DNA of 64,000 nt, taken from contig JBFLGF010000155.1 in assembly GCA_050230475.1 (NCBI GenBank), positions 1 to 64,000 of the forward strand. The letters run 5' to 3'. Below are positions 1,430-55,228 of this stretch, piece by piece. The DNA is from Ancylonema sp. (taxonomy: Eukaryota). The position numbers and the translations under genes were made by a program. Within the stretch, counting starts at the first letter, position 1; each line of letters opens with the position of its first letter. Under the pieces are notes generated by a model that ran no database searches, was not told the DNA's origin, and worked only from the letters and a program-made list of their open reading frames with translations.

Positions 1430-2200
1430 TAGAGTATGGTGTTGATTGAGTCTCAACTGATAGAAGTAGAAATGAAGATCTACGACTATATGCGACTTAT
1501 CAGTGGAGGTCACAAAAGTTACTGCTCACTGAAGGCTGCGATGCACTCGATGCAATACACTAGAGGTCAATAGCGTAGGATCAATCAAGACATGCAAGTG
1601 CACAATTTCACAACACGCGACAATTGATGCAAAAAAATTGAGGGCAAATAGCCGATGAATTTCTGCAGATGGAATTGCAGAATCTGATATAAGCTTCGGG
1701 ATATGCGCAAACACTTTATAATATCAAACGATGCGATGGACAAGACGGCTCAAAGCGTGAGGACACAATCTAGCGTACACTAGGGGGTGTAGCTTGAAGT
1801 AAACGATTCTGGTGACGCCCACTTAATGGCTGGTCACAAGGGTGCAAAACTTGCAAGGGTGATGACATTTGCGAGGGTAACGAGATTCTGGCTACGGCAG
1901 AATTCACAACGATGCGTATGCAAAACGGCACACGGACGGCTTTAATTCACTTGCGATGAGAAAAACACGCACAAGAAAGCAATCATAATTTATGAACTTA
2001 CGGCTATGGAAGCGACGCGCAGCTCGTACAATTCTGGCACGGAGTCAAAATTCGAACGGCGCTGATGACATAAGAAGAAGATGGAAATATTCAGAACACT
2101 CAGATTGCAAAAATATCTCTAGAAATTTGACAGTGTAAACTTACAGCGGAAGCTGAAAGTTGTGAGCACAAACTTTGTTCTTAAACAATCGACGCGGCTT
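1430..2200. repeat. Degenerate copy of LTR family X; carries the empty site of the hAT insertion at 23252
   Basis: Shares blocks with 29390-30150 (agggcaaatagccgat..; aacaatcgacgcggc) and, inverted, with 20878-20940. Reads tgttgattgaGTCTCAACtgatagaa with a single GTCTCAAC. Boundaries approximate. Confidence 0.65.
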
Positions 2201-11437: not shown

Positions 11438-12543
11438 ACCAATTTGGAATTTGATCATTTCGCATGTATATTTGTACTTTACTCAGCTGTTCTATTGGCT
11501 CACAAATACACAGGCAACTGCCATGTACGGTCCGGTTGCGGTTTAAACATCCGCCTAGAATTTCCCGCCATCATTGTGCACCTCGACCGACACTTGATAC
11601 CGTTTTCCCAACATTTGATTTTCAAACAAAGTTGGCCAGCAATCTAACGTTCGTCACAAACTTGAATTGCCTCACTAATCTTGTGTTCTGGTTATGTAAT
11701 CCGACATATCTGAAAAATATTTAGTTGTATACGTGTAAAGTATGGTGCATAATTATCTTTCTCAATGGTTGTGCACGTATTTGCAAGTGCGTTGCAATTG
11801 CAAATTTTCAAAGTAGGAATGATGTTACATAGGAGGTCTACATAATGACATGGAATAATGTGTATATGATGTGTATTCATATGTTCATATTACAAAAGGT
11901 TGAATGTGCAAAATGTTGAATGTTGAACACAACACCGAATTCATTATTGACATAGAATTTGTGAACTTCATGCATTCTGTGATGCATGTATCAGGCTTTT
12001 TCTTTTGATAAATGGAATGCAAATTTGGAGTAATATTTGAGATGCAGACAACCATGTGGTTGTACACAAGAGAAATGTTTGTTATACATTTTATTGATTA
12101 TCAAATAACCAATGGTTCGAATTGATGGCTTTGTTTAGTAAACTAATACAATATCTATAAACAATAACCAACGTTAAGGCAAAGAGCACTTGCACAACTG
12201 TAGACACTAATGTGAACAGAAAATCGAACCATGAAAAGTGAACAACAATCAAACAGTCATTGATATAGTCAAATGTCACATGAGAACTTTCACATGAGAA
12301 ACTACAGTATAACCTTTCTAAAGGAATATTGTATAAAGAAATAACCTCTTTAAAGGAATACAGGATAGTACCAAACCCGGATTTCTTGGAAACCATTTTT
12401 GTCTAAATAAATAATGTGTCTAAATAAATATAATTGCCCGGTCCCGAGAATATCACTTTAGACAGGTTTTTTAGTATTGTGTTTGTGGTGCGTTTTTGCA
12501 CGTAAATTCATAAATGTACAGGGGCTGGCGGGCAGGCGGCCTA

Positions 12544-14036
12544 CCGAACTCGCCATACATAATGACCCACAAATAATCATTGAAAGGGTGGGTCGGGTCA
12601 AATTGAATAATTCATTTTTTGGGGTTGGGTCACTCCATACTTTCCGAAATTCGGCGTAGTGGGTCAATATCGTAAAATCGGGTTTTTTCGTTATTTTGCT
12701 CAAAATACATACGTGGTTGGATCCCGATCGCCAAGAATCAATCGTGGTCCTTTATCGGCGGAATCTATTGTCATTGGTTTCCTTTTCACAAATTTAGGGG
12801 GGTAAATGGACATGTTGGGGAACAATTAAGGTGCATATTTTTCTTGCATTTTTGCGGCATGCACAAGCCAACATGATAAACAACATAGAGTTTCTATATT
12901 TTTTAAAACACAATACACCCTTCAAAATTCCGAAAAGTATGGAAAAATCGAAAACCCGAAAGAATGTGGATATTTCCACACACTCACTTACTAGTCACTC
13001 ACTCACTACACACTACTCACACTCTTTCACTATTTAATCTTCACTTCTCTTCCACTTCATGAGTCACTGTTCAGGTGTGAGAGTCGCAAGGCCGCAATCT
13101 AGAGCCGACAATGCACCCCACCGAGATAAGGCTTTTGAATGAAAGAGAGCGGATGAACGGCGAATAAATTTGAGATGAAGGAAAGTGAACGGATTCTAGA
13201 TTGTAAAGTGAACGGATGAACGGCGAATGAATTTGAGATGAAGGAAAGTGAACGAGTTTTAGAGTGTAAAGTGAACGGATGAACGGCAAATGGATTTGAG
13301 GTAACGGAAAGTGAACGGGTTTTAGAGTGTTAAGTGAACGGATGAACGACGAATGAATTTGAGGTGAAGGAAAGTGAACGGGTTTTTTAGTGTAAAGTGA
13401 ACGGATGAACGGCGAATAATTTGGAGGTAAAGGAAAGTGACCGGGTTTTAGAGTGTAAAGTCAACGGATGAACGGCGAATGAATTTGAGATAAAGGAAAG
13501 TGAACGGGTTTTAGAGTGTAAAGTCAACGGATGAACGGCAAATGAATTTGGGGTAAAGGAAAGTGGAAAGATTTTTAGTGTAAAGTGAACGGATGAACGG
13601 CAAATGAATTTGAGGTAAAGGAAAGTGAACGGGTTTTTCACTTCAAAGTGAATGGATGAACGTCGAATGAATTGGAGGTAAAGGAAAGTGAACGAGTTTT
13701 TTAGTGTAAAGTAAACGGATGAACGGCGACTAAATTTGAGATAAAGGAAAGTGAACGGATTTTTTAGTGGGAAGTGAACGGTAGAGTAAAAAAAACCTCG
13801 GGAATATCAGAAAAAAAAAGATGGCCGAAAGATAACCCCCCAAGGTTTACAGTGCCATAATAATAGTTCGGTACTCGTGCGGTACAAAATTGCGTGGGGT
13901 TTGAAGGTGGGTCATTTTTCTTGCCGGGTCAAGATATTTAAAATAAAAAAAACCCTGGTCATAATTGTGGGTCACGGGATAATAACTATATTTTGCCCGG
14001 GTCAAGTTGGTGGGTCATTATGTATTGCCACTATGG
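12544..14036 (+). mobile_element. Non-autonomous TIR element (family A) with internal ~60-bp tandem array
   Basis: Imperfect TIRs ta|CCGAACTCGCCATACATAATGACCC ... GGGTCATTATGTATTGCCACTATGG. Homologous to 46790-48110 and, inverted, to 14228-15460 and 35950-38073. Confidence 0.7.
13140..13781. repeat. ~60-bp tandem repeat, about 10-11 units
   Basis: Unit approx. AAGTGAACGGATGAACGGCGAATGAATTTGAGGTAAAGGAAAGTGAACGGGTTTTAGAGTGT. Confidence 0.9.
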
Positions 14037-14227
14037 CCACTACTGTTTTAATATGTATGACTATAGGGCTTGATACATATTTAGCGGGCCTATTGAATGA
14101 CGAGAATTTAGAATAGTTCATTTTCGAGGATTTCGGGGTTCAAAAATACAAGATAAGTAAACTATGGCTTTTAAACATTTGAAATGTATCGTACGGGTTA
14201 GATATAATGATCGACAAATTATAAATA

Positions 14228-15460
14228 CCGGAGTGGCCATACCTAATGACCCGGTTAAAAAAAAGAGGAATTAAATTTAGTGATGACCCACCAATTTGAC
14301 CCTGGAAAAATATATGTATTATCCTGTGACTTAAAATTATGACCCGGGTAAAATATATTTATTATACCGTGACCCGGGAGGCAAAATGACCCACCCCGAA
14401 CCAACGCGCAACTTTTACCGCACCGATAGTGTACTAATTGTGGTACCGTAAACACTGGGGGGGTAACTTTCGGCCATTTCTTTTTTTATTATTTTTCCGA
14501 TTTCTTTCTTCACTCCGTTCACTCTCCTCTCGCTCAAATGTATTCGTCGTTCATCCGTTCACTTAACAAAATCCGTTCACCTTCCTTCATCTCAAATTTA
14601 TTCGTTGTTCATCCGTTCACTTCACACAAAAAAAAACGTCCACTTTTTTTTTTCTCAAATTTATTCGCCGTTCCTCCGTTCACTTTCGTTCAAAAGCCTT
14701 ATTTCGGCGCGGTGCATTGTATTCTCAAGATTGCGGCCGCATACTGTAGCGGACTATGAGATCTGGACACGGGCTGTGAGTCCACAACCGTATTTTTAGA
14801 CCGTCGGTGATCGTCATGAAAAAAGGTCCGTTATACATATATATATTTCGGGAGATCCCCAAGAGATAAAGGCGAATGCATTGAAAGCAGTAATATGTGG
14901 ACAAAAAGCAGATCCCGACTGTAAGTTGGAGTATGATGCTAGGAATCAGCTAAAATTTCTCGACATCGAAATATTGAAACAAGGAGGAGGAGAAGAAATC
15001 CAAAAAAACGAAAGGGTTAGGTGAGGGTGCACGAGGTGAGGTTAGATGAGGGGGAGAGGGAGGGGGGAGGAGAGGAGGGTGGGGAGCACGATTGACACGT
15101 CTCGTTGATGGATTCAAAGCGGGAAGAGGGCGACGAGGACGAGAAGGATGAAGTGTAAAAGTAGTGAAGACTAGAGAGTGGTCGAGTATGAGTCGTGCGC
15201 ATTGAGTAGCGAGTACTAAGTGATTATGTGGAGATATCCGCATGCTTTTGGTTTTTCAAATTTCCATTACTTTTCAGAATTTTGAAAGGTGTATCGTGGT
15301 TTTAAAATATGGAAACTTTATGTCGTTTATTATGTTGGCTTGTGCATGGTGGAAAAATGTAAGAACATGTACAACTTTATTATTCCCGACGTGTCCGTTT
15401 CCCCCCTTATATCTACGAAAAGGAAAGCGATGACGATCGATGAGGCCGCTACCGTACCAA
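14228..15460 (-). mobile_element. Family A element, inverted and truncated copy
   Basis: Starts ta|CCGGAGTGGCCATACCTAATGACCC, contains reverse-complement tandem units (ttcatccgttcact) and a block homologous to 12760-13000. Confidence 0.65.
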
Positions 15461-22640: not shown

Positions 22641-23336
22641 TCATTGCTCGTTCGGCCCCTACCTGATGCATGCTTTGCATTTATTCCAAGAGCTTTTGCG
22701 TTGCTTGTTCCATGATTCAAAAAGAATGGCGGCCGAAAAGGGTCTCTCACAAGATACACGAAAATGAAAAAACCCCAACTCAAAAGGTTAGGGGCGGAAT
22801 GCAATGAGCCCCTAGTAAATTATGTTGCACGTTCACACACAATAGAATGGCAAAACGAGTCAATGGATAGGATGGCGAAATGAGCCGATGGTAAAGATTT
22901 TGGTTGTAAGGTAGGCACGACAAATGCAATTACATGAGTTGATAGGAATGCTCTAGAGGCATTCCTATCGGCTAGATATAGGAAAGTTGACGTGCCAAAT
23001 TGAGTCGACATGGAACTTGCCGATGAAAATTCGAAAAACTTGATCTCGACAGATTTTGGAAGAATCTAGAAATTTTTCAAACTTTTTATTTATTTATTTT
23101 TTATTTTCTTTCTAAGACTTTTAACAAGGTTACATCTTTCTCACTCTATCATAATGAATGTTGCATGAAACTCCAATGCCAAGAATGAAAGTTGCAACAG
23201 ATGTAGTCCCCATTTGGGCTCACTAAAGTGATGTGTTGATTTAGTCTCAACCAGGGATGCACCGGGACGGCAAAAATGTATGCAAACGCGGACGTACGGA
23301 ATATGTCCGTACGGCAAAAGTATTGCAAACGTTTGT

Positions 23337-24453
23337 ACCCACCCATCTCGATTTGCTTTTTTTAGGTGATTTTTCGTGTGTTCCTTTCCCCTCCCTCCTC
23401 GATTTACTCCTTTTTATAAGGTCTTTCCCTCCCTCCCATCTCTGTTTACGATTTTTTTTTTTTTAAAGATTATTTAAGGTGGTTTTTTATTCCCTCCCAT
23501 CGAGATTTTCTTTTTAGGTGATCTTTTCTTGTGTTTCTTTATTCCCTCCCATCTCGATTTTTCTTTTTAGGTGATTTGTTCTTGTGTTTCTTTACCCTCC
23601 CTCCTATATTTACTCCTTTTTATAAGGTCTTTTCCTCCCTCCCATCTTATGTTTACGATTTTAAAGGTTATTTAAGGTGGTGTTGTTTTGTTTTTTATGA
23701 TTTTCGTGAAGAACAGCGGAAAAAGTTGTAAATCGGGAAAGGACAATTATAACCCACCCATCTCGATTTGCTTTTTTTAGGTGATTTTTCGTGTGTTCCT
23801 TTCCCCTACCTCCTCGATTTACTCCTTTTTATAAGGTCATTCCCTCCCTCCCATCTCTGTTTACGATTTTTTTTTTTTTTTAGATTATTTAAGGTGGTTT
23901 TTTATTCCCTCCCATCGAGATTTTCTTTTTAGGTGATCTTTTCTTGTGTTTCTTTATTCCCTCCCATCTCGATTTTTCTTTTTAGGTGATTTGTTCTTGT
24001 GTTTCTTTACCCTCCCTCCTATATTTACTCCTTTTTATAAGGTCTTTTCCTCCCTCCCATCTTATGTTTACGATTTTAAAGGTTATTTAAGGTGGTGTTG
24101 TTTTGTTTTTTATGATTTTCGTGAAGAACAGCGGAAAAAGTTGTAAATCGGGTTTGTCCCTCCCATCGAGATTTGCTTTTCTTTAGGTGATTTTTTCTTG
24201 TGTTTCTTTTACCTCCCTCCTATATTTACTCCTTTTTATAAGGTCTTTTCCTCCTCCCATCTAGATTTTTTTTTTTTTTTAGATTATTTAAGGTGGTTTT
24301 TTATTCCCTCCCATCGAGATTTTCTTTTTAGGTGATCTTTTCTTTCTTTCGTCCCTCCCATCGAGATTTGTTGTTTTTAGGTGATTTGTTCTTGTGTTTC
24401 TTTACCCTCCCTCCTTACTCCTTTTTATAATTTCCTCCCTCCCATCTCTGTTT
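23337..24453 (+). repeat. Left tandem array (415-bp unit, ~2.7 copies) of the pPolB cassette
   Basis: Near-identical units starting at 23337 and 23752 (identical ORFs at 23531 and 23946, offset 415), built from ccctcccatc..tttaggtgat subrepeats. Confidence 0.92.
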
Positions 24454-24496
24454 ACCCAATTAATACCCCAGCCTTTATATTATGTACCCATTTCTT

Positions 24497-27307
24497 TCAG
24501 ATCTCTATTGCACTGCCCATCGTCATCTTCTTTAACACAAAGTTTGAGTTAAGCAGGAGCTTTTTCCTTTGCATGTGCGAGCACAGTATGTACACACTGT
24601 CCCCAGCCGCCATCCTCCTGTAATACTCCTCTATCGTTACGCTTCTATTGCCCCTATCGTAATATTGGCTGTGCCTATCGTGTACGCTTGCATTTCTGTG
24701 ACACTCTATGTACCGCTGGTCCGTGATCACCTTGTCTTTTTGGGTCTCAATTCCCTTCATTCGCATCTTTATGGCTACCTCTTTGCCGTCCCTTAACACA
24801 TAGTTGACGTACACCTTTTTGTTGATATATATCCCGAACGGGCCGACATCCTCTTCTTGTGTCAGCTTATGTAGCTCTTCTTTGAACTGGCCAAAGGCAT
24901 TGCCGAATAGTTCAGGCCGTTCAGCCTTTACCCTGTCATATTCGGCCTTGCTGGTGAACAGGGAATCTGTGTCCATGCCATACCTATCGTTGAACAGCGT
25001 TATTAACTCGTACATCATAGACCTTGCGTAAGAGTATATCAGCACACCCCACACACTGGGCATCTTGTTATCAACATCCGATCTAGTGCCATGGCCTATC
25101 CAGTAATGTTGCTCTGACACAGGTTCAATTGTGTATCCTGGTATCACGTTGCTAATAAACTTTAAGGCGTCCGTGCTGCTGCATATTAGAGAGGTCAAAT
25201 TCTTGTGCAGTCTCTGTATCAGCTTGCCGCTCAGGCCGTTCATGCCTAGCTTGCACATGTTCCTAAGCGCTATGTTGTTGTCACCGCCAGCATCTATCCT
25301 GAGTTTCGTGTCTATCATAGGTTGCAGAAACTCACGGAATATCTCTTTCGACGATTCTTCCCAATAGAAGCCATTAGACACGCGGACATCGGCCCCGTAC
25401 TTGAGTAGCAGCAAGATGTCTACTGATGTCGCTATTATCTTTATTTCACCCGCGTAGTCCCAGTCTAGGGACAGGTCCGCTTCTCTTATAGGTAGTATGT
25501 TGGGCGAAGGCTGTTCCATCACGGTCACTTGGTACACACCTATGCGCCCGGGCACGGATATTGGTGTGGCTACAGGCTGCCCGATAGGGAACGCTTGTGA
25601 GCACAGCAAGTACGGGTACTCGCTTGTCATGTCAAGGCAGACTACATCTCTGTCAGCCACGACTTTCCCTAATTCAAATACCTGCGCACGCCCGCCTATC
25701 ACAGCCGAGCGTATCATAGCGTCGATGGCTACGTTTTTTACCACCGGCTGCTCTGTATCGTTGTGCAGGCAGAAATGTTTGTACATCATAGAAGACAGGG
25801 TGATGTGGCTCTCGATCTTGGCGCCTAGCATTTCATTTATGGCTTTTTTGACCTTGAAGAAAAGCTCGCCTGTGCACTCAGCATCTGTTTTGACGTAGGC
25901 CTCTATCTCTGCCCTGTGCTCTTGCAGGTGTGTCTGAAGCTTATTGTTAAGACGGGCATCCTGTGTTTTTTCATGATCAAGTTCCCTCTTCTGAAACTCA
26001 CAGCCGAAAGACAGACAGGCATCTCGCAAATTGGTCTGCACAAACCTTTGCACGTCCCGCACTATAAACCCCATGAGGTTCATGTTTATTATGTGCTGTC
26101 CGCGAATATACATACACAGCGTTGGATTTTTATCAACGCACAAAGCCTGTTTCAATAGTATGTGGTTATCAAACCTAGAATTGTTGAAGCCAACCAGATA
26201 CCTTTTGCGCTTCTAACACACTCTCTCTTGTCAGATAATCTATTATGTTGTGACGGGTCCTCTCAAATTTTATTGTGGTACAAACAAGCATTTTGCTTGT
26301 GCCATTTGCTGACAGCCCACGCGTAAGGGGGGGGTTACATTGCCATGGTGATCATAGGTAGTCTCATGATCAAAAAAATAATACAGGATGTTGTCATCCT
26401 CATCATCATCTTCCGTGAGCCCCTTGCCGGTCAGGTTGTAGGATACCTCCGCGTCTGTGAGCTTGTTCCTGTGGCCTACTAGCTCACCGGTGATCATGCA
26501 GTAGCAGCTTTCAGGCTTAAAAGCCTTAAGGATGACGCTGTAGTGTTTATCGTGGTACAGCAGCTTGTAATCAGAGTTGTCATCCCCGCACAACAGAGAT
26601 GGGCTGCATTCCATGACACGCAGTTCTGTGCCCCACTGGTTGGTATCGGTTTCTACCCTAGTAAACGCAACGTTGTACCTGTCCTCGTACACACCTACCT
26701 CGATGCCGTACATGGCTGCGATCTCATTGACATCGCGCATTCCCTGGACAGCCGTGATTGGCACTCGATTTCCCGACAGATACTCTAGGCACTTGTACAG
26801 GCATTCACCATCGGAACGGTGGCTTAGGACCCGATAGCACAGCGTATGTTTCACAGCCGCCTCGCCAGCACCCCCTTCCGTGTCCCTAGTAACTATGCGG
26901 AACCAGCTAGTATATATGTGCGAAAGCCTTAGCACAGTAGAAAAAGTGTCTGAGCCAAGAGAGTCGTGATCCCCTATCTCAAGGCTGTCGATGACAGCAT
27001 CTAAGTCGTCTAGGGACGGTGTGGGCAGACTAAGGTTTGTCACCGACCCGTTTCCCCAGATGACCCTGAACACTACGTTGACGATATCAACGAGCTCGTG
27101 CTGAATATCATGAACAGCGCGGCGCACAACCTCTAAGAACTCTCTGCGTGACAGATTGTCTGTGAAGTCGTCGCCTTCGTAAATATTGGCAATAAAGCCG
27201 CCGTAGTATGGGAAGCCATTACGCGTGAAACGGCTAGAATGGTCGCGGATAAAAAAACGAAGGGCGCGGTTTATGAACCTTTGGTACGGTGTAGGCAGAC
27301 AAGTCAT
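24497..27307 (-). pseudogene. Protein-primed family B DNA polymerase polyprotein (putative terminal protein + OTU-like protease + exonuclease + polymerase), disrupted at ~26195-26335
   Basis: ExoI FFDHET, ExoII LVGFNNSRFDNH, ExoIII YVKTD; IRSAVIGGR, DMTSEYPY (motif A), KLGMNGLSGK (B), YGMDTDSLF (C), KKVY, MKGI. ORFs 26270-27346 and 24497-26155 join across 2-3 lesions, including a G8 run at 26327-26334. Confidence 0.9.
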
Positions 27308-27644
27308 GATTGGCCTAAAAGGTATACAGGGCACACAATGATTCAATAATTGTTGATTCTTTTAAAATTATACACACACCGAACAACAGTGAAACCAATA
27401 ATCCTGACTTGGAGCATTACAGCAAAGTACACGCAACAACTAAGCAGTTGTCACTAGGGGTCGCATATAAACCTTCCTCTAATCATCATAAATTACCATT
27501 TTTCCATATCCTATATAATTTTATCAAAGATAATTGTTTTTCCGGTAAAAATTAATTTTATCTTCGCCTTACGGAGCCCAAGAACGAGTTATTGGGCTAA
27601 TTTCATCAAAGATAATTTCATCCGTGAGGTTGAAACTATTTAAC

Positions 27645-28336
27645 AATAATTGTCCTTTCCCGATTTACAACTTTTTCCGCTGTCTTCACGAAAATCATAA
27701 AAAAAAAACAAAACCACCTTAAATAACCATTAAAATCGTAAACAGAGATGGGAGGGAGGAAAAGACCTTATAAAAAGGAGTAAATAGAGGAGGGAGGGTA
27801 AAGAAACACAAGAACAAATCACCTAAAAAAAGAAAAATCTCGATGGGAGGGAATAAAGAAACACAAGAAAAAATCACCTAAAAAGAAAATCTCCGATGGG
27901 AGGGAATAAAAAACCACCTTAAATAATCTAAAAAAAAAAAAAAATCGTAAACAGAGATGGGAGGGAGGGAAAGACCTTATAAAAAGGAGTAAATCGAGGA
28001 GGGAGGGGAAAGGAACACACGAAAAATCACCCTAAAAAAAGCAAATCGAGATGGGTGGGTTATAATTGTCCTTTCCCGATTTACAACTTTTTCCGCTGTC
28101 TTCACGAAAATCATAAAAAACAAAACAAAACCACCTTAAATAACCTTTAAAATCGTAAAAGAGATGGGAGGGAGGAAAAGACCTTATAAAAAGGAGTAAA
28201 TAGAGGAGGGAGGGTAAAGAAACACAAGAACAAATCACCTAAAAAAAGAAAAATCTCGATGGGAGGGAATAAAGAAACACAAGAAAAAATCACCTAAAAA
28301 GAAAATCTCCGATGGGAGGGAATAAAAAACCACCTT
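27645..28336 (-). repeat. Right tandem array (same ~415-bp unit, inverted, ~1.7 copies)
   Basis: Reverse complement of the left array: aattgtcctttcccgatttacaac at ~27648 and ~28064 versus gttgtaaatcgggaaaggacaatt at ~23725. Confidence 0.92.
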
Positions 28337-31300
28337 TCATGATGAAGTCATCCAAGGGCCTCAAGATACGCGTGCAGCTTTCTCAGATGCTTGTGCACAG
28401 TATGATTGAAGAGGATTTTTCACTCGCAACAATAGAGTAAAATAATATATTCTTGGTTGGTATCCAACCCTCACGGATACAATACCTTGCGGAGCAAATT
28501 ATCTCCCCCCCCTCCGCGGGTGTTATTGTCGTCAGCAGAGTTAAGGATTGTTGCTCGATTGTTTTAGGATTGGGGTTGTTTTCCTTCTTCTGTTCCTTTA
28601 GGTTGGTACGATAACGTTGGTGTTGTACTAAGATGGGGTTCCCATCGTGCTTGAATAAAATGCGTCTTTCTCTTTTGCAACCGTGTGCATTTTGCAAACG
28701 TCCGCAAATTTATTCCTAGATAGGCCCGTTCCCGGATAAGCCGTAAACCCATTATATCCGGCGGACTCTCTATTTTGTCGTACCCCCATTTTGTCCCCGT
28801 CTGTTTGTTGTGTTCCCGTTTTTGTCATCATTTCATTTCCCCCATTTTTTCCTTGTTCCCGTCGTTTTGTCATGTAGCACGTCTCTATTATGTCGTGTCT
28901 TCCGTTCCACCATGGTATCTTGGCCCGTAGCCCGTCTCCCGTTCCATCATAGATTCTGTTTGTAGTGTGTGAGACAGAATCTTTAAGTTTTCTTAAATAT
29001 CTAGCATCTGACGGGTGAGCGTCGTTCACGACCGTGTCCCATCCCCCGATGCCGTCGATGAATCCCCTATTGTCAGTAGATTCTCTACACATTCACGACC
29101 GAATCTGCCTGTTTTTTTTTTTAAATCCGGAGTCATTAGTACGGACATGTACGGACATGTACGGACCATAAGGACGCAAACGTTTGCAAACGCAAACGTT
29201 TGCAAGCGCAAACGTTTGCATCCGTACAGTCCGTACCCGTTTGACGCATTTCACGTCCGTATTCCGGACGTTTGCGGGCAAATCCGTACGCCGTTTGCAT
29301 TTGCCAGGGCCGGCAGATTGCCCTCGGCCCCGTCCGGAAAACGTGCCGTACAGAAAACGGGCCCCGGCTCGGTGCATCACTGGTCTCAACTGATAGAAAT
29401 AGAGAATGGGTGACTACAACTATATGTAACTTATTAGTGGACTTCGCAAGAGTTAATTCTCATTGAAGAGTGAGATGCACTTAACGAGACACGTTGGGAG
29501 GTCTGATAAAAACAATTTATGGTTAATCAAGTAGCGCAGATGTTTAGATTTGCAACACGCGACAACTAGGCAAAAGACTGCAGGGCAAATAGCCGATAAA
29601 ATTCTACAGATGGTTGTAGGAAATTGAATAAAACTTCACGTTACGCAAATCGGGATAATTAACATTGGACAATGAATAGACGACTACTCAAAAACTAACT
29701 CAAATAGCGCTGCAATTCAATGAAAATAAGTTGCATGCAAATATACGCGGAACAACGCAATTTCAGTTCGTAACGGTATTTTTTACGTCAGCGAATCTGC
29801 GAGTAAAACAACTTGCCAGCGTGAGAGCGATAGCAAAGGTGAAACGAATTCTGGTCAAATGAAAATACAATCAACGTGTCAAACTAAACGTACGCAAAAT
29901 GTTTAGGATGCAGATAGTATGCAGGGAAGAGAAATTGCAAGGCAAATGCTCACGTGAGCGAAACGATGAACTGTTCGCGGAGTATACAGGATGCCAATGG
30001 CCGGAGGCGAGAATGAGGAACGCAAAAGAGATTTACATAGAGATTGCATAAAGATAAGAGTTGCAAAAAATATTGAAATTGTGAGAGCGTAAACTAATAG
30101 CGGAAGTTGGCACTTATGAAAGGAAATTTTCATTTTGAACAATCGACGCGGCGGTTCTAGAACTCGCTCGCGAAAAAATTAGAGATCGAAATCTGATCGA
30201 AGGGATGAGAATAAAAGTAATCAACTAGACTAAAGATAAGGTTCTATCAATCTAGGATATTCTGATAGCACGTGCGACATCTTAGCTACATGGATTGACT
30301 TGCTATTTTGACAGGCCAACTCGGCGCGCACTGAAATCAAATAATCTGATTGACGCGCTAGACAACGTGGACTTAACTTCTGGAAATTGCTATGCCGATG
30401 TTTCGTGGTGTACTCGATATATAAAAATGCTTAGATCTCACGTAACTTGTTGCAATCATTTTATAACAACAAAATCATTTATAACGATGAAAATCGACAA
30501 AGTTCGAAACATATGCCAAAAAGTAGTTTTCTTTCTAACGATCTCTTTCAGCATGACAAAGTCGGCCCTAGCCGACTCTAGAAACAATGTGGGACAACTC
30601 ACTCTGAATATACTTATTACACATCAAGTCTAGCTAAAGGCACAACTCCGGAGCTAAAGACACATTAGATTAGGGGCGAGGCGGCCGCTAGGGACACAAG
30701 AAGAGTCACTTTAAAGCATAGTAGCATCAAAACGCGTACGCGTTTTGCAAACGCAAAACGTCCAAACGTCAAAACGGCAATTTTAGACGTACGGACGCAA
30801 CACCACACGCTGGTCCAAACGCACCTATCCAAACGTCCGCACACTACCTTTTTTTTTTTTTTTTTTTTTTTTTCCCGGTTTTTTTTTCAATATATTTCCC
30901 ATTTTTTTTTTTTTTTTGTATTTTCCATTTCCGTAGCTTTTGCCATGAAAGTGAATATTTTCGAATTATTTCCCGATTCTTCTTTTCTTTTCTTTTCCAC
31001 ACAAAATAACATTAAAAAAAATCCTATATCGAGCGTATGTTGTACAAATATATTTACTTGAAAAGACAAATGTATTTTTTTGTACATGTGAACGATACTT
31101 TTTTTTGTTGAAATGAAAGACACTACTTGTGAACTTTCAAGTAAACACGTGCGGTAGAGAAAACATAGAAAACACACGAGTCCGTACGTGTTCATTGGTT
31201 TCTACACTTGGGAACTTAAAAATCCTGGCTTCACATCGATATTTCGCCGAAACTTCGTGTCTAAATTGGCCGAGCATAAAGTGACGCTTCCCAAATTACG

Positions 31301-32599
31301 ACTAATGGGGTTTCCGTCTGATTGACGAGATTTCGTCGGTAATTACGGGGCAAAATCCCAATTGCAATCTCACAACCCTTGGTGTACCCTTCTTATGCAT
31401 TGCACTTTAGGCCCTAATTCCTGCAATCACGAACCGAGTTGTCAGTCCCAGGTATGGAAAATAAGCCCCCGTATTGCTTTGTTGGGGGTTATTAACTTAA
31501 AAACCCCAAGTAGGGGTTGCACTTATATTGCTAAATTGCTATGATAGACATGATTTGGGGTTCCTTTGGCAGGTTTAAACACAATGGTGCCCATAAAAAA
31601 TTGTCGTTCCAACGGATAAATATGTTTCAAGCATAGTATCAAATTGATTCGACAAAACGGGACTCACCATGTTTGAAAGGGCCCATTCGCAACCACATTC
31701 ATTCTATCATGCATCATCATTTTGGTGAAGAAAAACGTTTTGCGTTCCCAACAACTATTTTGGCGTATGGTATATTTGGAAAACTTGGAGCGAGAATTCA
31801 TCAATTGGCGTCTCAAATATTGAAAAACTCCATAGTCGAAGTGACAAACAAAGAGAGAACGATTGGAGGCATCGCCGATTGCGTAGTCAAGTAATAAAGC
31901 GATACATCGCCGCATTTACTCTAAACATCGGCACGTATTTCCTATTTTACAAACACAAACGTGAATAATTGATGAAACATGAGAGTTTCGGTCATCAGAG
32001 CTTGAAGGGGAAAGTAGCGTGTCCAAGTAAACGGTCGTGCGAGGAAATTGATGGCATTGATTGAATTATCTATCAATGCCATTTATCCTCCCACCCGTTC
32101 GAGACTTTTGGGGAGGGGGGCGGAGGAAAAACGAGATGGTATTTCCTCCGACGAGCCTCGATTATAAGTTTCCCGGGCGACTGAATTACGTACGCCCCGA
32201 CGAGAGGTCACCAGCGCCAAGATATACTCTCTCGCAATTCATGGCACACATTACCCGATTGAGCATGACAAATTCGTGGTACGCCAAAATGTATTGTCCG
32301 ATGTCCACTCAAACTATCCGCAATGGCGGCGCGTTACTTGTGAGTGACAATTTTTGTTATTACGTTTCGGTCACAGGCCTCCAATTTTTTTTTTGTATTT
32401 TTCAACGGAGAGCGATTTAGGCCATGATTTGATGGTTGGGGGTGGGAAATGCCCCTAAATCGCCCCTAAATTCAAATTTATATGTAGGGTTTTTTCAGGG
32501 GTGCTTCCCATTTGTACCTTTATTATGATTTTGTAATTACGGTCTAATCACCCCTAGTTACTAAGAGGGTTTTTAGAACTAGCCATCCCTAGTCTGTCC

Positions 32600-33132
32600 C
32601 ATAGTTGGCTCCGCCCCGCCAATCCCTCCCCGCTTTCCGCCCCGGGCGGGCCCGCCCCAAGGCGGCGCCACGAGCGAAAAAAATTCCGCATGGGGCGGAG
32701 CTCTAGAGGTTTTTTTTGTTTTTAATAAAAGGATCCCAAGACCACGTAGATCATGTACATTTGTAAAAAAAACAAATCCAACTAGTATTCGAGATGTTAT
32801 AACACTAAGTACGCCTGCCATCTTTACCCGTGTAATATTATTTTGTACATCTCAAGTTTGGTTTTTTTACTTTTCATTTTTATCGCATTATACCACGCCA
32901 CGCTACGTAGTCGGACTCATGGGTGACATTAGATGGTGTCGGACGTGTAATGTATGGCGCACACCCTTCAAGAACAAAACCCATTGCGGCATATTTTTTT
33001 TTGTATTTTGGCCTATAAATTCGCCCCCCAAATTCCGCCCCGCTTTCGCCCCGAGCAAGCCGCCCCGGGCGATTTCGTCCCGAACGGCATCCCGGGCGAA
33101 AAAAAATCCCGCCCGGCGCGGGGCCAACTATG
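32600..33132. mobile_element. hAT-type MITE in the RuvBL1 promoter
   Basis: TIRs CATAGTTGGC(T)CCGC / GCGGGGCCAACTATG; 8-bp TSD GTCTGTCC at 32592-32599 and 33133-33140. A short relative lies at 7967-8079. Confidence 0.88.
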
Positions 33133-33292
33133 GTCTGTCCTTGCCAGCCTGCACTGTGGCGGCCATTGTCAGGAGTCAAGGAGTCGACGTTGGGAGAGCT
33201 GCAGATGAAGTCGACTTTCGGTCTCTCCTCGTGCCCAGGAAGACACATCACGACCTGTGGTTTCTATCGACACTGAAGAACCATTCCAAGCC

Positions 33293-35023
<1,731 letters not shown>

Positions 35024-35631
35024 CCTGCTGTATGGCGCTCCATGGACAGGGGTGTGGACCCCGATAAGGGAACATGGCCCTTGGTGAGCCCAAAGGCGCT
35101 GTGAAAGGACAGCCTGGAGACTACCTTGCGGGTCTGAACTTGGCTGTGGTTTATCGTGGGCATCCTTGTCGCAGTTTTTGTAGATGTGAAAGGTGGTTGC
35201 CTTGCTTGTCTACATGGCCTATGTCTGAAACACCTTTAGGGTGAAGCCTCCAATTTTGGCAATGGTGGGCGCAAAATGCTCCACCTTCCCTAGGTATATA
35301 AGTTGGTGTCACCATTTTGATCCTAAGGAGATGTTTGCTAACAATAGCTTTGTAGCACATTAGGCACTCTATAGTCGATTGTCGTTTTCCGCGGTATGGG
35401 TGAGTACACGTTGTGTTTGTCTCGAGTACACTCAATTGTAAGAATGACAACACTCCCGATTGTAAAATTTCACAAGGCTTTTGTTGTGCACTGCTGTGTG
35501 AAGGACATAATGAGTTCACTATTTGTCATTAATAATACCAGCCGTAAATTATATCTCCATGTAATAGGTGTTTGCCAACACCTATTACTGTATTGGCCAC
35601 ACATAATCACCCGGTTTTTTAAAATGAAATA

Positions 35632-35949
35632 CCGTACTGGCCATACATAATGACCCGGGTAACAAAAAAACACAATTAATCTTTGTACTGACCCACCAAC
35701 TTGACCCGGGCAATATACCGTAGTGGCGATATATAATGACCTGGCTTTAAAATCGAATTAATTTAGCCAAGAAACCACCACTTGACCCAACCCGCGCACC
35801 CAAAATAAAATTCCCCAAAATCCTGAAAAACATTTATTTTATGGTGGTCCACATTATAGAATGATACATTAAATAAAAAATAAAAAATAAAAGACCCCAC
35901 CCACCCTTTTCGTAATTAGTTGAGGGTCATTATGTGTGGCCAGTACGGG
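35632..35949. mobile_element. Tc1/pogo-like MITE related to family A ends
   Basis: ta|CCGTACTGGCCATACATAATGACCC ... GGGTCATTATGTGTGGCCAGTACGG(g)|ta. Confidence 0.7.
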
Positions 35950-38073
35950 TATATTTATTATCCCGTAACCCAAAAATATGACCCGGGTAAAAATAATTAT
36001 TACACTGTGACCCGGTTGGCAAAATGACCCACCCCAAAACAACACGTAATTTTCGCCGCATCAGTAACGTATTAATAAGATACTACAAATCTTGGGGGGG
36101 TAACTTTCGGCCGTCATTTTTTTTCTGATTTTCCGGGTTTTTGTATTTTTTGCATCACACCGATCACTTTAAAAATCCGTTCATTTTTCCTTTATCTCTA
36201 ATTTACCGTACGGGCAACTGGGCAACTTAAATGATTTTAAATTAATTATTGAAACCCGAAAGTAATCATTTAAATTAATTACTAAATGGTACAAAAAGGA
36301 TACTCAAAATCATTAATAAAACCCGTTTTAGGAATCATTTACGGGATATTCGGGGCCACCTGGATTCGACTCAATATGTGATGAAACGGGCTACACGACA
36401 AAGTAGGCACGTGCAAAAGGACACATTATTGGACGAGCGACATGTATGACGTCAGAAACTACGGACCGGGCCCTAAAGTCCCACGGTATGGGAAACACCA
36501 CCGATTCGACGCGCTAAACGACAAATTAAGACCAATCATAACAACAAAATTGTGGCCGGTCAAGATATCGCGACTAGAACGAGTGCTTGCCACGTGCACT
36601 TGTGACGTCAAAATGTACGGTAAATATGTAAGAATGACCCAGAGATAGACAAATCATTCGATTTTTAATTCCTAAACAAGGAAATCTTTTACGTACGCTG
36701 TTTATTCCTACAATCCGGAATCATCCCCAAACATATTGATAATAACTAACGGATTCATGGAATCATTACCAGAAATCATCGATAGTAACTAACGGAATCC
36801 CGGGATTTTGAGAAATCATTACGAAAACAATTAATTTTGGAAAAACAGAAATCATTTAGGGTGCCCAGTACGGTATTCGCCGTTCATCCGTTGACTTTAC
36901 AACAAAATGCCCGTTCACTTTCCTTAATCTCGTATTATTCGCCGTTCATCCGTTCAATTTACACTGAAAATTCCGTTCAATTTCCTTTATCTCAAAATTA
37001 TTCGCCGTTCATCCGTTCACTTTACACCACAAAAAAACACTTTCCTTAATCTCATATTATTCGCCGTTCACTTGTTCGCTTTAAAGGGAAAATCTAGTTT
37101 ACTTACCTTTATCTCAAATTTCTTCGCCGTTCATCCGACCACTTCACACTAAAGATCCCGTTCACTTTCCTTCATCTCAATTTTTTTCGCCGTTCATGCG
37201 TTCACTTTACACTAAATTTTTTGTTTACTTTTATTCAACTCAATTTCGTTCGCCAATCATCCGTTCACTTTACACCCTGAAACCCCCTCATTTTTATTTG
37301 ATCTCATTTTGTTTCGCCATTCATCCGTTCTCTTTACACTAGAAAATCCGTTTCCTTTTTCTTTATCTCAAACATATTTGCCGTGCATCCGTTCACTTTA
37401 CGCTGAAAATTCTGTTCACTTTCTCCTTTATTTAAAATTTATTCGCCGTTCATCCGTTCACTTTACACCAGGAAATCTGTTCATTTTCCTTTATCTCAAA
37501 TGTATTCGCCGAGCATCCGTTCACTTTACACTGAAAACTCCGTTCACTTTCCTATATCTCAAATTTATTTGCCGATCATCCGTCCACTTTCGTGCCAAAA
37601 AGCATTATCACGGTGCGGTGCGTTGTCGGCTCTAGATTGCGGCCCTCCGGAATGCAGTAGACTTTGAGCCTCGAACACATACTCTTAGTTCACAATTGTA
37701 TTTTCAGACTTTGTCGCTGATTGTCATGAAAAGATGTCCGTTATACAAATATATTATGAGAGATCCCAAATAGATACAGGCGAGTGCTTTGAAAGTAGCA
37801 AGTGAGTGTGTGGTGACATCCGCATGCTTTCGGTTTTTCGATTTCCCCACACTTTTCGGGATTTTGAGAGGTGTACTACGGTTCAAAAATTCTGGAAAGT
37901 CTATAGTGTTTATCATGTTGGCTTGTGTATGGTGCAGAAGTATAAGAAAAGGGAAGACCTTCATTATTCCCCGACATGTTCATCCCCCCCCCTAAATTTG
38001 TGAAAAGGAAACGAATGACGATCGATTAGGCCGCTACCGGACCACGATTGATCTTGGGCGACCGGGATCCAAC
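35950..38073 (-). mobile_element. Family A element, inverted, with 60-bp tandem array at ~36875-37590
   Basis: Reverse-complement match to 12715-13990 and 46955-48090. Confidence 0.7.
36206..36873. mobile_element. TA-targeting MITE nested in the tandem array
   Basis: ta|CCGTAC..TGGGCAACTTAAATGATTT ... AAATCATTTAGGGTGCCCAGTACGG|ta. Confidence 0.75.
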
Positions 38074-38160
38074 CTGTCGTAATGTATAGGCTCGTGTCCT
38101 TGTAGTGCGTGCCAGGCACTGTTATAAAGGAACGGGTGTGTATATTCGGTCTAGCGGACC

Positions 38161-39245: not shown

Positions 39246-40536
39246 TTATTCATTATCGCCGGGATTCTTAGGGCCTACAACTGCAATCCTAATGGGGGCT
39301 GGGAGAGTGGAGAGCGTCACGTGTAGTGTTGGGGCCCACTTGCCAAACACCTCCGGTTGGGTTGAAATCCGACCCGCCACTCGCCTTCGACCCGCCAACA
39401 CCCCCCACCCGCCCTCCACCCGCCCCCCACCCGCCCCACCCGCGATGCACCCGCCGACTGCCAAAAATGGCGGGTGCGCGGGTTAAACGGACATTTTGAG
39501 TATGAAAACTTATAAAAATACAAATAGATGTGCATATGTTGTGTTACTTAACGGACAACATGGAAAGAGATATCAAATGTCTCGGATTCCGGACAATTCG
39601 GACATTTCCCCTGCTGCAAGGGTGTTATACATGAAGTAATACACGACACGGACACTACTCGGAAGTATCATAAGAAGAGTATCATATGTACATCCAAGGG
39701 GAGATTTGCAAAGGGAGTCGCAAGTTAATTGTTAGCGTTTTGGTGTGGATGGCGGTGGTTGTTGCCATTTTACATGGTTGGCCCGGCCCAATGAAGTGCA
39801 TGAAATGATGGTTTTTGCAATGCGGCATTAATTGCGCGACGATATTCAAGTCTTGGCTATGCATGTTAATAATCCCACAAGAACAATACCTACTTTACAT
39901 GTGTGGAGATGAAACGCATGAAATTATAAATAAAAGTTTGCACATTTTCAACAAATTTTGCCATCACTAAACTGCACTCAAACCCCGATATAAGAAACCT
40001 TAAATTATTGAGGAACATTTTCTTATAGCGAATATTTCTTATATGTATAGTAAACTTTGTATGGGAGACCTCGCAAAGATGTTTCATATAACGAGGTTTG
40101 GACACGTGCATCCATGCCGTCGAATTTATGAGTGTGCGGTAGTATATTTTCAACATGTGGACGTGCAATACTTGAACTGGAGGACCTCAAAAGTTTTTGT
40201 GATAATAGTTGCACTCGCGATCTTTGCGTAAATAGTTAATTTCAGGCGGTTGCGAGATATTGGGTGAGATAATTAATATAACAAGTGTTGATTCATGAAT
40301 ATATTTATCATTGAATACTAATCTAGAGGGGTTCTACTTTATCTAAGAAACCCGTAACACTAAAAATTGGAAATTTTTGTTTCTTATATCGAAGTTTCTT
40401 ATGCTTGTATTGGGAAGGTTTTATCGAGGAAAAAACAATGTTGAGAAAAACGTTTATCTTAGCGAGGAGTTTATTATATCGAAGTTGTTTATATCGGGGT
40501 TTGAGTGTAACTAATCACACACGTAATTCTGGCATA

Positions 40537-41218
40537 CACTGCTCCCTCGATATAACGACAAAATAAAAATCCAATAAAGTGTCGTTATATCGAGGTGTCG
40601 TTATACACTGTAAAACGACATTTACATACTATACACGTGCATCATGATACCAATACATGCGGATGGACACAATATACCACAAAACTTTACGAGGAGAGTT
40701 GGGGAGGTATTAAGGTTGTTACAAAGCAACACCGGACACGCGCATTCTGCTGGACATGGAGTAAAAGCAGTGGACAGTTGAAACAATGAACAACATGAAC
40801 ATTTTTAACAGCTGGTAACGTTCATATTGAATGAGTGTAACTTGTGAGTGCTTCGCAACTCAAGAGGAATTACTACTACATATACAGGAGCTTAGTTCTG
40901 GACCATCCGAGGAGGACAGAGGCAGCGTTCTCTTGATATGATATATGGAACAACTCAAACACTTCGTAGAGAATTTGGGGTGTTGTTTATGAGGTTTCTA
41001 GATTTTTATCGATCTCCATACATCGTTAATCTGCGAGCAATAGCGTTATATACACAGTATAACGACATTGAGTAACAAATTTCTGAAATAATTTGTTAGA
41101 TTATATAGAGTGTCGTTATGCTTATATCGAGGGCGATTTCATAACGATTTAAAAAAAGTTCCTGTCGTTATATCGAGGTTGTCGTTATAAAGAGGGTCGT
41201 CATATCGTGGGATCACTG
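40537..41218. mobile_element. Tc1/pogo (Tigger-like) MITE
   Basis: ta|CACTGCTCCCTCGATATAACGAC ... GTCGTCATATCGTGGGATCACTG|ta, with repeated gtcgttata subterminal motifs. Confidence 0.72.
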
Positions 41219-41379
41219 TACTAAAACTGTCGATTATCCGTACCACCCGACACTTTTGGCGGGTCGGCGGGTGCATCGCGGGTGGGGCAGGTGGAGGGCG
41301 GCTGGAGAGCGGGAGGGGGGGGGGCGCTATAGCAACCGCCAAAGTGCTGAGGGTGGCGTGGGTTTCGGACGGGACATGG

Positions 41380-41790
41380 CCCCTACTAACTGCGTACAGA
41401 CCCCCCGTAATATCGGGAAAACGGCAAGACTCATAATGTCGCTGTACGTAGGGACCATGGCCCGTCCAAACCCGTGGTTTCGTTATGGGAGTTGTTTGTA
41501 CATCGACGCCCTACGAATTATCCCGACGCCCCTTTCCACTAACGGGGACCGTAGATTCGGCTCGATTAGATTTGGTGGCCTGTGAGCCGTCGGTCCGTCG
41601 TACGGACTATTCTTTAGATTCGACCGATTCTCGTTGGGCGACGTGGCTGTCGCTGACGCCAGTACCGGTGACGGAGATTTGCGCATAACGAAAAATCACG
41701 GTTTGGACGGCCATGGCCCCTGTGTACAGCGACATTATGAGTCTTGCCGTTTTCCCGACATTACGGGGGTCTGTACGCACTTAGTAGGGG
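41380..41790. mobile_element. Foldback element/MITE with ~105-bp inverted arms upstream of SFR2
   Basis: 41380-41487 is the near-perfect reverse complement of 41684-41790. Confidence 0.8.
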
Positions 41791-42087
41791 GTCTGTACGC
41801 CTTTCGGACCCGATCGGATCGCGGGTGGATGAGGATGGCGGGTGGGCCCCAACACTAGTCACGTGGCGACTACCCGCTGGGGCACGAACTTTCAATCAAT
41901 TAATATTTGCCACCTGTGCACTCGATTGAAACTACGCACCGGACGACACGTGCGCTGCCTAGCTTCGACTAAGCTAAACTTGGCAGGTCAGGTCAGGTTG
42001 CCATTACATTGCTTAGAGGGGTATTTGGAGGTGTTGTTTCATGCCTGATCCCCCTGAATTTGAGCCAGTTTCTGGATACCTCCTTCG

Positions 42088-46087: not shown

Positions 46088-46789
46088 AGTAGATGAATGA
46101 ACGACTAAAGGAGTGCCCATCGGAGATACTCGGGTACTCCGCAAATGGCATGGCAGAGGAAGAATAATATGGCAAGGGCGAATCAGATTTGGGCGTTGTT
46201 GTAAAATACTTGTTGTTGTAGACGAAGGAAGTTCATGGTGACAACATATAAGATGATCAAGACGAAGTTGGGGGGATTTGGGAGTTTAGGTGAAAAAAGA
46301 ACCCCCAAGAATCGGTGCACATTTTTGGGTGAGGATGGTCCTTCTAGTGATTTCGAATTTAAAGGTTTCTAGCTTTGTGTACTGCATTGATGTGTGGAGG
46401 TAGCTACGTGACTGTGTGTATGAGACGGCGTGAGGAGAAATTTTGATAGATGGGAAGTGGACAAGCGTCCAAGCGCACTTTTGTCGAAAGTAGTCTAGCT
46501 TGCAGGGATGGTGGTGGAGTAGATACGTGCCCCCCCTTGTACTCCTACTCACTTTGACCAACAAACAAAATTGACAACATAATTGGGGTAATAGTCGGCC
46601 CCTTTCGACAAATATTGAAAGGCGTACCGAACTCCACAAAATCATGGCAGTCGTAAAAAATGATAGTTGCATATGTTTACTATCAGAATGGTAGATGCGG
46701 CGCAGATCCGGATTTGGTGCAATTCGGATTATTAACGAAATGTTGTAGAATGGTGTGTATTACCCATCATGGCACACACTAGTACAGTA

Positions 46790-48110
46790 CCGTACTGGCC
46801 ATACATAATGACCCGTAAATAAGTATTGAAAGGGTGGGTCGGGTCAAATTAAATAATTCATTTTTTGGGATCACGCCATAAATTCTGAAATTCGGCGTAG
46901 TGGGTTAACATCGTAAAATCCATTCTATTCGTTTTTTTTTGCTCAAAATACATATGTGGTTGGATCCCGATCGCTAAGAATCTATCGTGGTCTCGTAGTG
47001 GCGTAAACGATCGTCATTGGTTTCCTTTTCACAAATTGAGGGGGGGAAATGGACATGTTGGGGAACAGTTAAGGTGCATATTTTTCTTACAGTTTTGCAC
47101 CATGCACAAGCCAATATGATAAACAACAGAGGGTTTCCAGATTTTTTAAACCACCCTTCAAAATTCCGAAAAGTATGGAAAAATCGAAAAACCGAAAGAA
47201 TGTGGATATCTCCACTCACTCACTTACTAGTCACTACTCACTACACACTACTCATACTCTATAACTATTTACTTGTCACTACTCTTCCACTTCATGAGTC
47301 AGTGTTCAGGTCTCAAAATCTGTTGCAATCTGCAAGGCCGCAATCTAAAGCCGACAATGCTCCCCACCGAGATAAGGCTGTTGAACGAAAGTGAACGGAT
47401 GAACGGCAAATAAAATTGAGATGAAAGAAAGTGATCGGGTTTTGGAGTGTAAAGTGAACGGATGAACGGCGAATGAATTTGAGATAAAGGAAAGTGAACG
47501 ATCTCTCGGAATCTCTCGGGATCTCTCGGAATATTTGTATAACGGACCTAATTGCATGACGATCCGCGACAAAGTCTAACAATATAGTTGTAGATGAAAA
47601 GTATGTGTTCACGTCTCACAGTCTGGTGCAATCTCCAGAGCCGCAATCTAGAGCCAACAACGCACCGCACCGAGATAAGGCTTTCGAACGAAAGTGAGCG
47701 GCGAACGGCGAATAAATTTGAGATCATGGACAGTGAACGGATTTTTCAATGTAAAGTGAACGGATGGATGACTTGCGAAAAAAAACGAGAGAAGGGAAAG
47801 GGAACGGAATTTTTATGAAAAGTGAACGGATAAACGGCGAATAAATTTGAGATATAGAAAGTGAACGGAATTTTAAGTGGATACTGAACGGCGTAGTGAA
47901 AAAAAATCGGAAAAACCATTAAAAATTTGACGGCCGAAAGTTACCCCCCCATGGTTTTTATACGGCACTAGTGCGGTTGAATCACGCGTTGTTTTGGGGT
48001 GGGTCATTTTGCTTGCCGGGTCACGGTATAGTTTTTTTTTTAACCCGGGTCATAATTTTGGGTCACGGGATAATTAATATATGTTGCCCGGGTCAATTTG
48101 GTGGGTCACC
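46790..48110 (+). mobile_element. Family A element with interrupted 60-bp array
   Basis: ta|CCGTACTGGCCATACATAATGACCC start; colinear with 12544-14020. Confidence 0.72.
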
Positions 48111-48591
48111 ACAAAAATAAATTGAAATTACTCTTAACTGGTAGAGATTGGTAGAGATCGATAGGGATCGGCAGGGATTGGTAGGAATGGGTGACGTGCT
48201 GTTTGGAGTCGGCCGCCTAAAATGATATTCTTCATACTTTGTTCCCTTTGTTCCCGGATGTTTCTCAGAATGATGCATGTGGTAATGCACGCGGTGGTGT
48301 GGTGATGATGTCGACTGGGTTGGTATCGATGATGTTCGTCTGAGGTGGACTTGGTGGTCCGGCTGCTCTCACTAAGTAGTATTGCAGATTGAGTCTCTGC
48401 TGAGATATCAATATTATATCTATTACACGTCTGAGCGGTCTGGTGAAATTCACTACTTAACGCCGAGGGCGAGCTAACATATGGTTTATAGTACAAAAGT
48501 TTGTGAAAATACTATAAAGCAAACAAGATAGTCTGGTGCAGACTATCAAGGTTGAGTTGCTTTCGGTGCGAAAGCAAAGTATCGACGGCAA

Positions 48592-54500: not shown

Positions 54501-55228
54501 GCAGCTATTGTGTAGGACTTTACAAAAATTCTCGCACAGCTCGAGTTCAGTGCAATAATTCCTGCACTGCGCAGCACTCACAGCTCAAAAACTTGCAGCG
54601 AGCTGCGCAATATCAGAATTACGTGCAGACCTTAACAACCTCGAATATATTTGCGCTCACTGGCTGAATATACCGTTCACAGAGATTACCGCAGCGAAAT
54701 CGCGTGGAGCCTTTAGTTTTTAACCTAAACGGCGTCTGAACTAGACCGCTAGACCGCACGTGGGCCCATAACCTATAAGCTTTTGAGTGATTAGACTTGC
54801 CGGAGGACTATTTAGGTGGGCGACAAAACGAACCGTACGCAAAAGGATCTATCACTGATGATCAACGAGACAGGAGTTGCGTGTGTGGAACAATTATTAG
54901 TGATTGCATCGGGGATGGTAATACCCGATGCCTTTAACAGATTGTTGTGTGCCGACGGTCGGCACAATTGACCGTCGGCCTATCATTGACTGACAGCTCT
55001 TCTAACATGTCAACGGCACATGCCGGACATTTTCTGACACGACTAAAACAAGCCAGTCACGACGCTTCAAACAAAACGTCTCTAAGCGTCGGAAACATGT
55101 CAGGTGCCCGGGCACAAACTTGCCCGGCCCCGCATACAGGCACATCTAGAACATTGCTCCCGGTGGTTAGATAACCGGTCACAACTGGACTAGCACCATA
55201 ACATATGGCTATCCAAAATATCCTGCCA
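48592..55228 (-). mobile_element. Full-length but frameshifted Ty1/Copia retrotransposon; LTRs 48592-49039 and 54774-55228
   Basis: Paired ~450-bp LTRs; PBS GGTTATGGGCCCA (54761-54773); PPT adjoining 49040. Gag with three CCHC knuckles, LILDSGATDH protease, WHHKLGHP, HLDLIGP/PEQNGICER integrase, GCRYVFKVK/GLKQS/HVDD RT, IHTDS..ADMLTKAL RNase H. Confidence 0.95.

Follow-up and report, generated by a model that had tools for sequence, protein, structure and literature searches.

A protein-primed polymerase element between hAT-like transposon ends, probably the product of a single capture by DNA repair

The stretch analysed here, 64,000 nucleotides of contig JBFLGF010000155.1 (Ancylonema sp., assembly GCA_050230475.1) and referred to below as the window, carries a hAT-like transposon whose ends enclose a gene for a protein-primed family B DNA polymerase (pPolB), itself set between inverted arms. 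The anatomy is real: the ends are of hAT type, and their insertion duplicated 8 bp of the target. The probable history of the locus is that a broken and truncated, polymerase-only linear element entered one non-autonomous hAT copy, once, by DNA repair, through either capture or nested insertion. The initial annotation had offered two interpretations, a hAT-mobilised self-synthesising element or a replicon that landed once in a hAT by repair; the latter fits our results, whereas the former is unsupported at this locus.

The transposon extends from 23252 to 29382, between two copies of a perfect 8-bp target-site duplication (TSD), GTCTCAAC, the left one (23244-23251) recognised by its sequence and by the joint test given below, the right one (29383-29390) by its sequence. 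The hAT-like left end (23252-23336, plus strand, 85 bp) is composed of a 13-bp terminal inverted repeat (TIR; 23252-23264) followed by subterminal GCAAACG and GTACGG motifs, and the right TIR (29370-29382, minus strand) matches the left one at 12 of 13 bases. Taken alone, the TIR 13-mer could be expected by chance: it has 2 matches where shuffled sequences have a mean of 1.06, and 33 of 100 shuffles give at least 2. The joint pattern, an 8-bp direct repeat abutting an inverted repeat of at least 12/13 within 10 kb, is found three times in the window and not once in 20 base shuffles, and the subterminal motifs cluster at both ends of the element, where 11 of the 18 GCAAACG sites of the window fall. 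TSDs of 8 nt are given for hAT elements (PMC8903248).

A paralogous empty site lies at 1440-1672 (plus strand) and contains GTCTCAAC once, at 1450-1457. Over 232 bp, its 3' flank shares 70.7% identity with that of the transposon (E 1.9e-22), and 9 of the 10 bases just upstream match; the site is a paralogous host repeat, and not an allele. The TIRs, the TSD and the homologous empty site placed at ~1439-1470 by the initial annotation are thus all recovered.

The right-end module of the transposon (28337-29369), with subterminal repeats from ~29125 and an interior without Pfam domain, belongs to the ~1,045 bp of separate right-end sequence that follows the cut right arm of the cargo. Neither a transposase remnant, in any of the six frames, nor a Pfam domain was detected in 28337-29130, so that the cargo cannot be said to occupy the position of the transposase, as had been proposed, and the hAT label follows from the TIR type and the 8-bp TSD only, because no transposase was found. 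Other public contigs, those of P0181 and of three members of its cluster, also contain the stretch that runs from 28823 into the right subterminal repeats, which makes this stretch a likely part of the hAT right end. A 154-aa open reading frame (ORF; 29092-28628) was considered as a second gene or a subtilase and rejected: it has no Pfam match, none of 196 candidates is a longer homologue, and it is likely spurious. Its atlas score is 0.88 with low recognition, its four relatives start differently, one of them switching frame, and P0181 spans 29179 to 28823.

Public contigs of runs X1 and X2 (organism A), aligned to 22950-23850, take in the left junction only; both runs come from one sample, possibly the source of the window itself, and are therefore not independent. 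Exactly at 23252, at least 27 contigs in X1 and at least 33 in X2 begin matching the window, with unlike flanks (agreement 0.39 and 0.38, respectively), and after 23289 at least 45 and at least 44 contigs diverge from its sequence. The left end therefore belongs to a real, multi-copy and varied hAT-like family. The join between left flank and TIR is bridged by one contig (22960-23276) with 0 differences. Contigs of X3 and X7 cover the arms, with no cover over the hAT end, and were not used as evidence here. In both X1 and X2, contig depths add up to a very high total over a short repeat at 22925-22989, which is found again at 62897-62960.

The cargo, or cassette (23337-28336, ~5 kb), is composed of a single gene between inverted arms. 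Its left arm (23337-24455, plus strand, 35% GC) contains 2.7 tandem 415-bp units of ~53-bp subrepeats, and its right arm (27646-28336, minus strand), an inverted copy of the left one (96%), contains one whole unit and 275 bp, cut mid-unit at 28336. There is between the arms neither an ORF nor space for a Polinton-type integrase, capsid, packaging ATPase or protease; on this gene content, the cargo is not Polinton-like.

The gene (24497-27307, minus strand) matches PF03175 (E 2.6e-29), with exonuclease and palm motifs present, in agreement with the protein-primed polymerase first annotated. Three frameshifts interrupt it, near 26332, 26292 and 26213; that near 26332 sits in a run of eight G and could be a read error. 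The gene is identical at 868 of 929 aligned codons (93.4%) to P0026, which is intact and 933 aa long. The long variants P0001, P0026 and P0030 have intact ORFs and are 94-96% identical to each other, with sister forms at 71-76%. The predicted structure of P0001 (mean model confidence, pLDDT, 82.7) aligns with phi29 polymerase with a Z score of 28.6 and a root-mean-square deviation of 3.3 over 516 residues. At the N-terminus, all 18 non-gap rows have a serine in a GS[DE] loop that links a helix to a strand; a conserved cysteine (17 of 17 rows) and a conserved histidine follow. The predicted order of helices and strands and these residues fit the terminal-protein (TP) and vOTU domain layout described in bioRxiv 10.1101/2024.03.18.585575, so that both domains may be tentatively assigned. 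No TP or OTU fold was found among the matches listed, from fold searches that covered residues 259-878, the N-terminal model having a pLDDT of 35. None of the 29 long homologues scanned, out of 150 listed, fuses the pPolB to a transposase domain.

With the loop serine and the putative vOTU cysteine and histidine, protein priming at the tips of the arms would be the mode of replication of an intact cargo. Such priming requires terminal origins. A molecule excised by its hAT ends would have its arms inside, one of them cut, and a frameshifted gene, so that this copy cannot self-synthesise.

The composition and upstream region of the gene were also considered. It has 48% GC, with 59% at third codon positions (GC3), compared to 31-42% GC and 29-52% GC3 in all 7 nearest loci. 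The gene thus lacks the strong A/T richness of fungal cytosolic linear plasmids, or virus-like elements (VLEs), which also have a cytoplasmic UCS promoter. An AT-rich region lies upstream of it (27308-27645, minus strand), and ATNTGA, the promoter motif of yeast VLEs, is absent from the 343 bp upstream of the gene.

The affinities of the polymerase were assessed in trees built with neither yeast pGKL nor Polinton references. In a quick tree of 44 rows, the window family stands on a long branch (1.36) inside a clade of 26 rows (SH-aLRT 100), which includes five Kickxellales proteins and the metagenome locus L048; the capsid-bearing L002 and the virophage-like loci fall outside. The same grouping with VLE-type polymerases is found in a 118-row FastTree (support 0.983), from which 23 near-duplicate rows had been removed. 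On these sequences, the polymerase groups with those of fungal cytosolic linear plasmids (VLEs) of Kickxellales, and not with virophages, and the comparison with Polintons and casposons made initially is misplaced. The window protein is 32-39% identical to fungal and soil proteins. Named homologues come from Coemansia and Kickxella, on contigs of 6-9 kb, and contigs of this type are described as free cytosolic linear plasmids (PMC13348850). The supplement of that work gives 17 DNA polymerases for the C. reversa strain behind P0005, the P0005 accession itself being absent there.

Of 148 metagenome loci, the 80 retained are all at most 36% identical. Closer loci were not recovered by a P0001 pattern search of viral contigs (0 of 63 matches confirmed) or by searches of genome contigs (0 of 17 and 0 of 91 confirmed), and the arm and left-end motifs gave 0 matches in viral contigs. 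The best-scoring metagenome locus, L048, carries a pPolB, an Rpb2, a kinase and a terminal repeat array; as a side observation, L048:1-13733 looks like a helper-type VLE and also has two PD-(D/E)XK-like ORFs. Elsewhere, a pPolB adjoins a ferroportin gene (L053:331-5288) or a Sel1-repeat gene (L052:1-2805), these being either integrated copies or plasmid cargo. A full-length pPolB is also carried by the virophage-like contigs L002, L055, L058, L059 and L063; major and minor capsid proteins of Sputnik type are matched in L002, and terminal inverted repeats are present in L059 and L063. A 2,230-bp Logan contig is listed for both P0028 and P0029; judging by their ends, these two pieces would stem from different breaks, a point in favour of a single capture at the present locus.

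How the cassette came to lie within the hAT ends can be approached from its left junction. The cassette begins, as initially noted, 85 bp inside the left end and shows no TSD of its own. The last six nucleotides of this end, GTTTGT (23331-23336, plus strand), are common to the hAT-type motif GCAAACGTTTG and to the start of arm unit 3 (24152-24157), and this overlap is possibly a junction microhomology. The lack of a TSD, the GTTTGT overlap, the left end of only 85 bp and the clipped right arm together form the pattern that would be expected of repair-mediated entry. One cassette copy could have been patched into a break in the hAT end, or captured during gap repair, with a joining that would have used 5-6 nt of microhomology; through its entry, the interior of the hAT would have been lost and the right arm shortened. 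Capture may predate or postdate the last jump of the hAT, and a transposase acting in trans could still carry the composite along as a passive load. A single capture is also supported by a second element of the window with TIRs and an 8-bp TSD, one end of which likewise contains a nested insert, and by yeasts, where the capture of VLE DNA in the nucleus is well established (PMC4431711).

The junction might alternatively be an artefact, a high-copy free plasmid or repeat having been stitched into a hAT copy during assembly. None of the contigs listed bridges 23336/23337, none of the X1 contigs among those listed has the letter of the window at several arm positions, and one frameshift sits, as mentioned above, in the run of G. 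Against such a chimera, the flank-TIR join is bridged without a difference and both TSDs agree; furthermore, the window arm differs from the X3 consensus by ~3%, and its units 1 and 2 share private variants, which fits a resident, decaying copy. We thus consider an assembly chimera very unlikely.

Whether the cassette and the hAT ends travel together was evaluated from contig depth, which is not a copy number, so that the arithmetic is rough and other forms of the junction would be missed. Four arm landmarks, each on a single contig, reach 98-282 times the depth of the locus-specific contig. Divided by their occurrences per cassette, these values give 49-70 cassette equivalents, free or integrated; as a very rough estimate, ~50 of them would be present for each single-copy locus, and the polymerase-only element is likely abundant in this organism. 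If 50 copies shared the junction, the bin 23353-23383 would be expected to reach ~1252 in X1 and 13428 in X2, against 686 and 7353 for one copy. The observed values are 824 and 6666; in X1 this leaves room for additional entries at the arm start worth ~13 locus equivalents, and in X2 the estimate is negative. This suggests that the exact junction is limited to a minority of cassette copies, and no second locus joining the cassette to hAT ends was found among the contigs listed.

These values bear on another explanation, that of a Pack-hAT lineage, in which the cassette was captured once and a hAT transposase acting in trans then spread copies of the composite to several loci, with the polymerase decaying as a passenger. 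Plants are known to have Pack-hATs whose TSDs measure 8 nt (PMC8903248), and our element has retained both TIRs, its subterminal motifs and a perfect TSD; the X1 depth would moreover permit up to ~13 extra joined copies. The X2 estimate speaks against it, as do the absence of a bridging contig among those listed and a left end of only 85 bp, and we regard this lineage as possible but unlikely. Some points also weigh against a single repair-mediated entry: X1 leaves room for the ~13 further hAT-joined copies, the depth values have the limits given above (one sample, left junction only, contigs listed only), and ~50 equivalents of an element without integrase could be explained by hAT carriage through other junctions.

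A working partnership would go further, with hAT ends and transposase providing integration and the element's own pPolB amplifying the excised form, in a self-synthesising transposon of a new kind. The cassette is abundant though devoid of integrase, P0001, P0026 and P0030 are intact ORFs with 94-96% identity among them, the GC3 of 59%, above that of relatives, would suit nuclear expression, and Teratorn offers a precedent of transposase-virus fusion (PMC6431247). Origins are, however, needed at the tips of the molecule, a position that neither arm occupies at this locus, one of them being cut as well; in addition, the gene carries frameshifts, and most arm copies appear not to share the junction. 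With depth limiting the junction and no second joined locus among the contigs listed, the self-synthesising element initially proposed finds no support here, and we hold a working partnership to be the least likely of the explanations. A broader proposal, in which a living, nuclear-expressed descendant of a fungal-type, polymerase-only plasmid enters the chromosomes of a plant-lineage alga by means of hAT ends and a transposase in trans, forming many hAT-bounded copies of which this one has decayed, is also improbable in our view. The hAT/cassette coupling is most likely an ordinary nested event, and a single repair-mediated entry remains our preferred reading.

The window carries eukaryotic genes (DNL zinc finger, TIP49 and GH1) and fragments of long terminal repeat (LTR) retrotransposons. 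Its RuvB-like protein has its best score with PDB 9eq2_A (590 bits), which we take to be a plant entry, followed by a group at 556 bits, presumably human, and by groups at 495 bits or less, presumably fungal. The intron-split GH1 gene (PF00232; 43791-46087), which we take to resemble plant SFR2, is the main hint of a streptophyte host. Because of this score order and of the GH1 resemblance, the host is likely a streptophyte alga.

Other repeats accompany these genes. The second non-autonomous TIR element (39316-41865) has the TSD GTCACGTG and a 16-bp TIR, TAGTGTTGGGGCCCAC; its right end is interrupted at ~41380-41790 by a nested insert with inverted repeats. A 533-bp miniature inverted-repeat transposable element (32592-33140; TSD GTCTGTCC, TIR beginning with CATAGTTGG) lies just upstream of the RuvB-like gene, and all three 8-bp TSDs of the window start with GTC. 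A repeat family with ~63-bp internal arrays is present in several copies and both orientations (12542-14900, 35627-38074 and 46788-48123). Two LTR retrotransposons are decayed (48592-55224 and 57744-61481): the LTRs of the first, which is copia-like, are 91.5% identical, and the direct repeats of the other are 95% identical.

No report of a hAT-pPolB pairing, nor of a VLE in streptophyte algae, was found in the literature searched, which lies mostly outside subscription journals. Cytosolic VLEs are placed only in fungi in PMC13348850, whose main text has no occurrence of 'algae'. If our reading is correct, a single-gene VLE relative with host-like GC and intact copies, abundant in a likely streptophyte alga, would extend the range of VLEs, and would raise the questions of where it replicates, how it is transcribed without a helper plasmid and whether it originates from a fungal parasite. 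The hAT coupling, if true at many loci, would be a new integrase-polymerase pairing. The interest of the locus is carried mostly by the VLE-related, host-GC-like replicon, and less by the hAT pairing.

Among known systems, casposons combine a Cas1 integrase with a prokaryotic host. No Cas1 is found in the window, which has, unlike them, eukaryotic genes and LTR retrotransposons. Polintons/Mavericks and the virophages with a pPolB share with the cargo long terminal inverted repeats and a polymerase with exonuclease and palm regions, preceded in the cargo by putative TP and vOTU domains (TP-vOTU-EXO-PALM type) (bioRxiv 10.1101/2024.03.18.585575); unlike Polintons, compared here without a Polinton sequence in the tree, the cargo has no ORF for a retroviral integrase, capsid, ATPase or protease. 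Teratorn, a piggyBac-herpesvirus fusion and the nearest precedent for the pairing, resembles our element by its cut-and-paste ends around a replicon of viral ancestry, but its transposase is active, its replication genes are intact and it is present in multiple copies (PMC6431247), whereas the polymerase is frameshifted and the arms are cut and internal at this locus. Closer in form are the non-autonomous hATs and Pack-hATs, with short TIRs, an 8-bp TSD, subterminal repeats, no transposase and a foreign coding cargo (PMC8903248); the cargo is here a whole mobile replicon rather than host gene fragments, and is seen loaded at one locus. The cargo itself is most like the fungal VLEs of Kickxellales and Mucoromycota, with inverted terminal arms and neither capsid nor integrase (PMC13348850), and this copy is like their nuclear relics (NUPAVs), among which pseudogene copies occur (PMC4431711); the VLE-like L048 shares a clade with the window pPolB. 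It differs from fungal VLEs by its single gene, its higher GC, the lack of ATNTGA upstream, its long branch, its likely streptophyte algal host and its enclosure within hAT ends.

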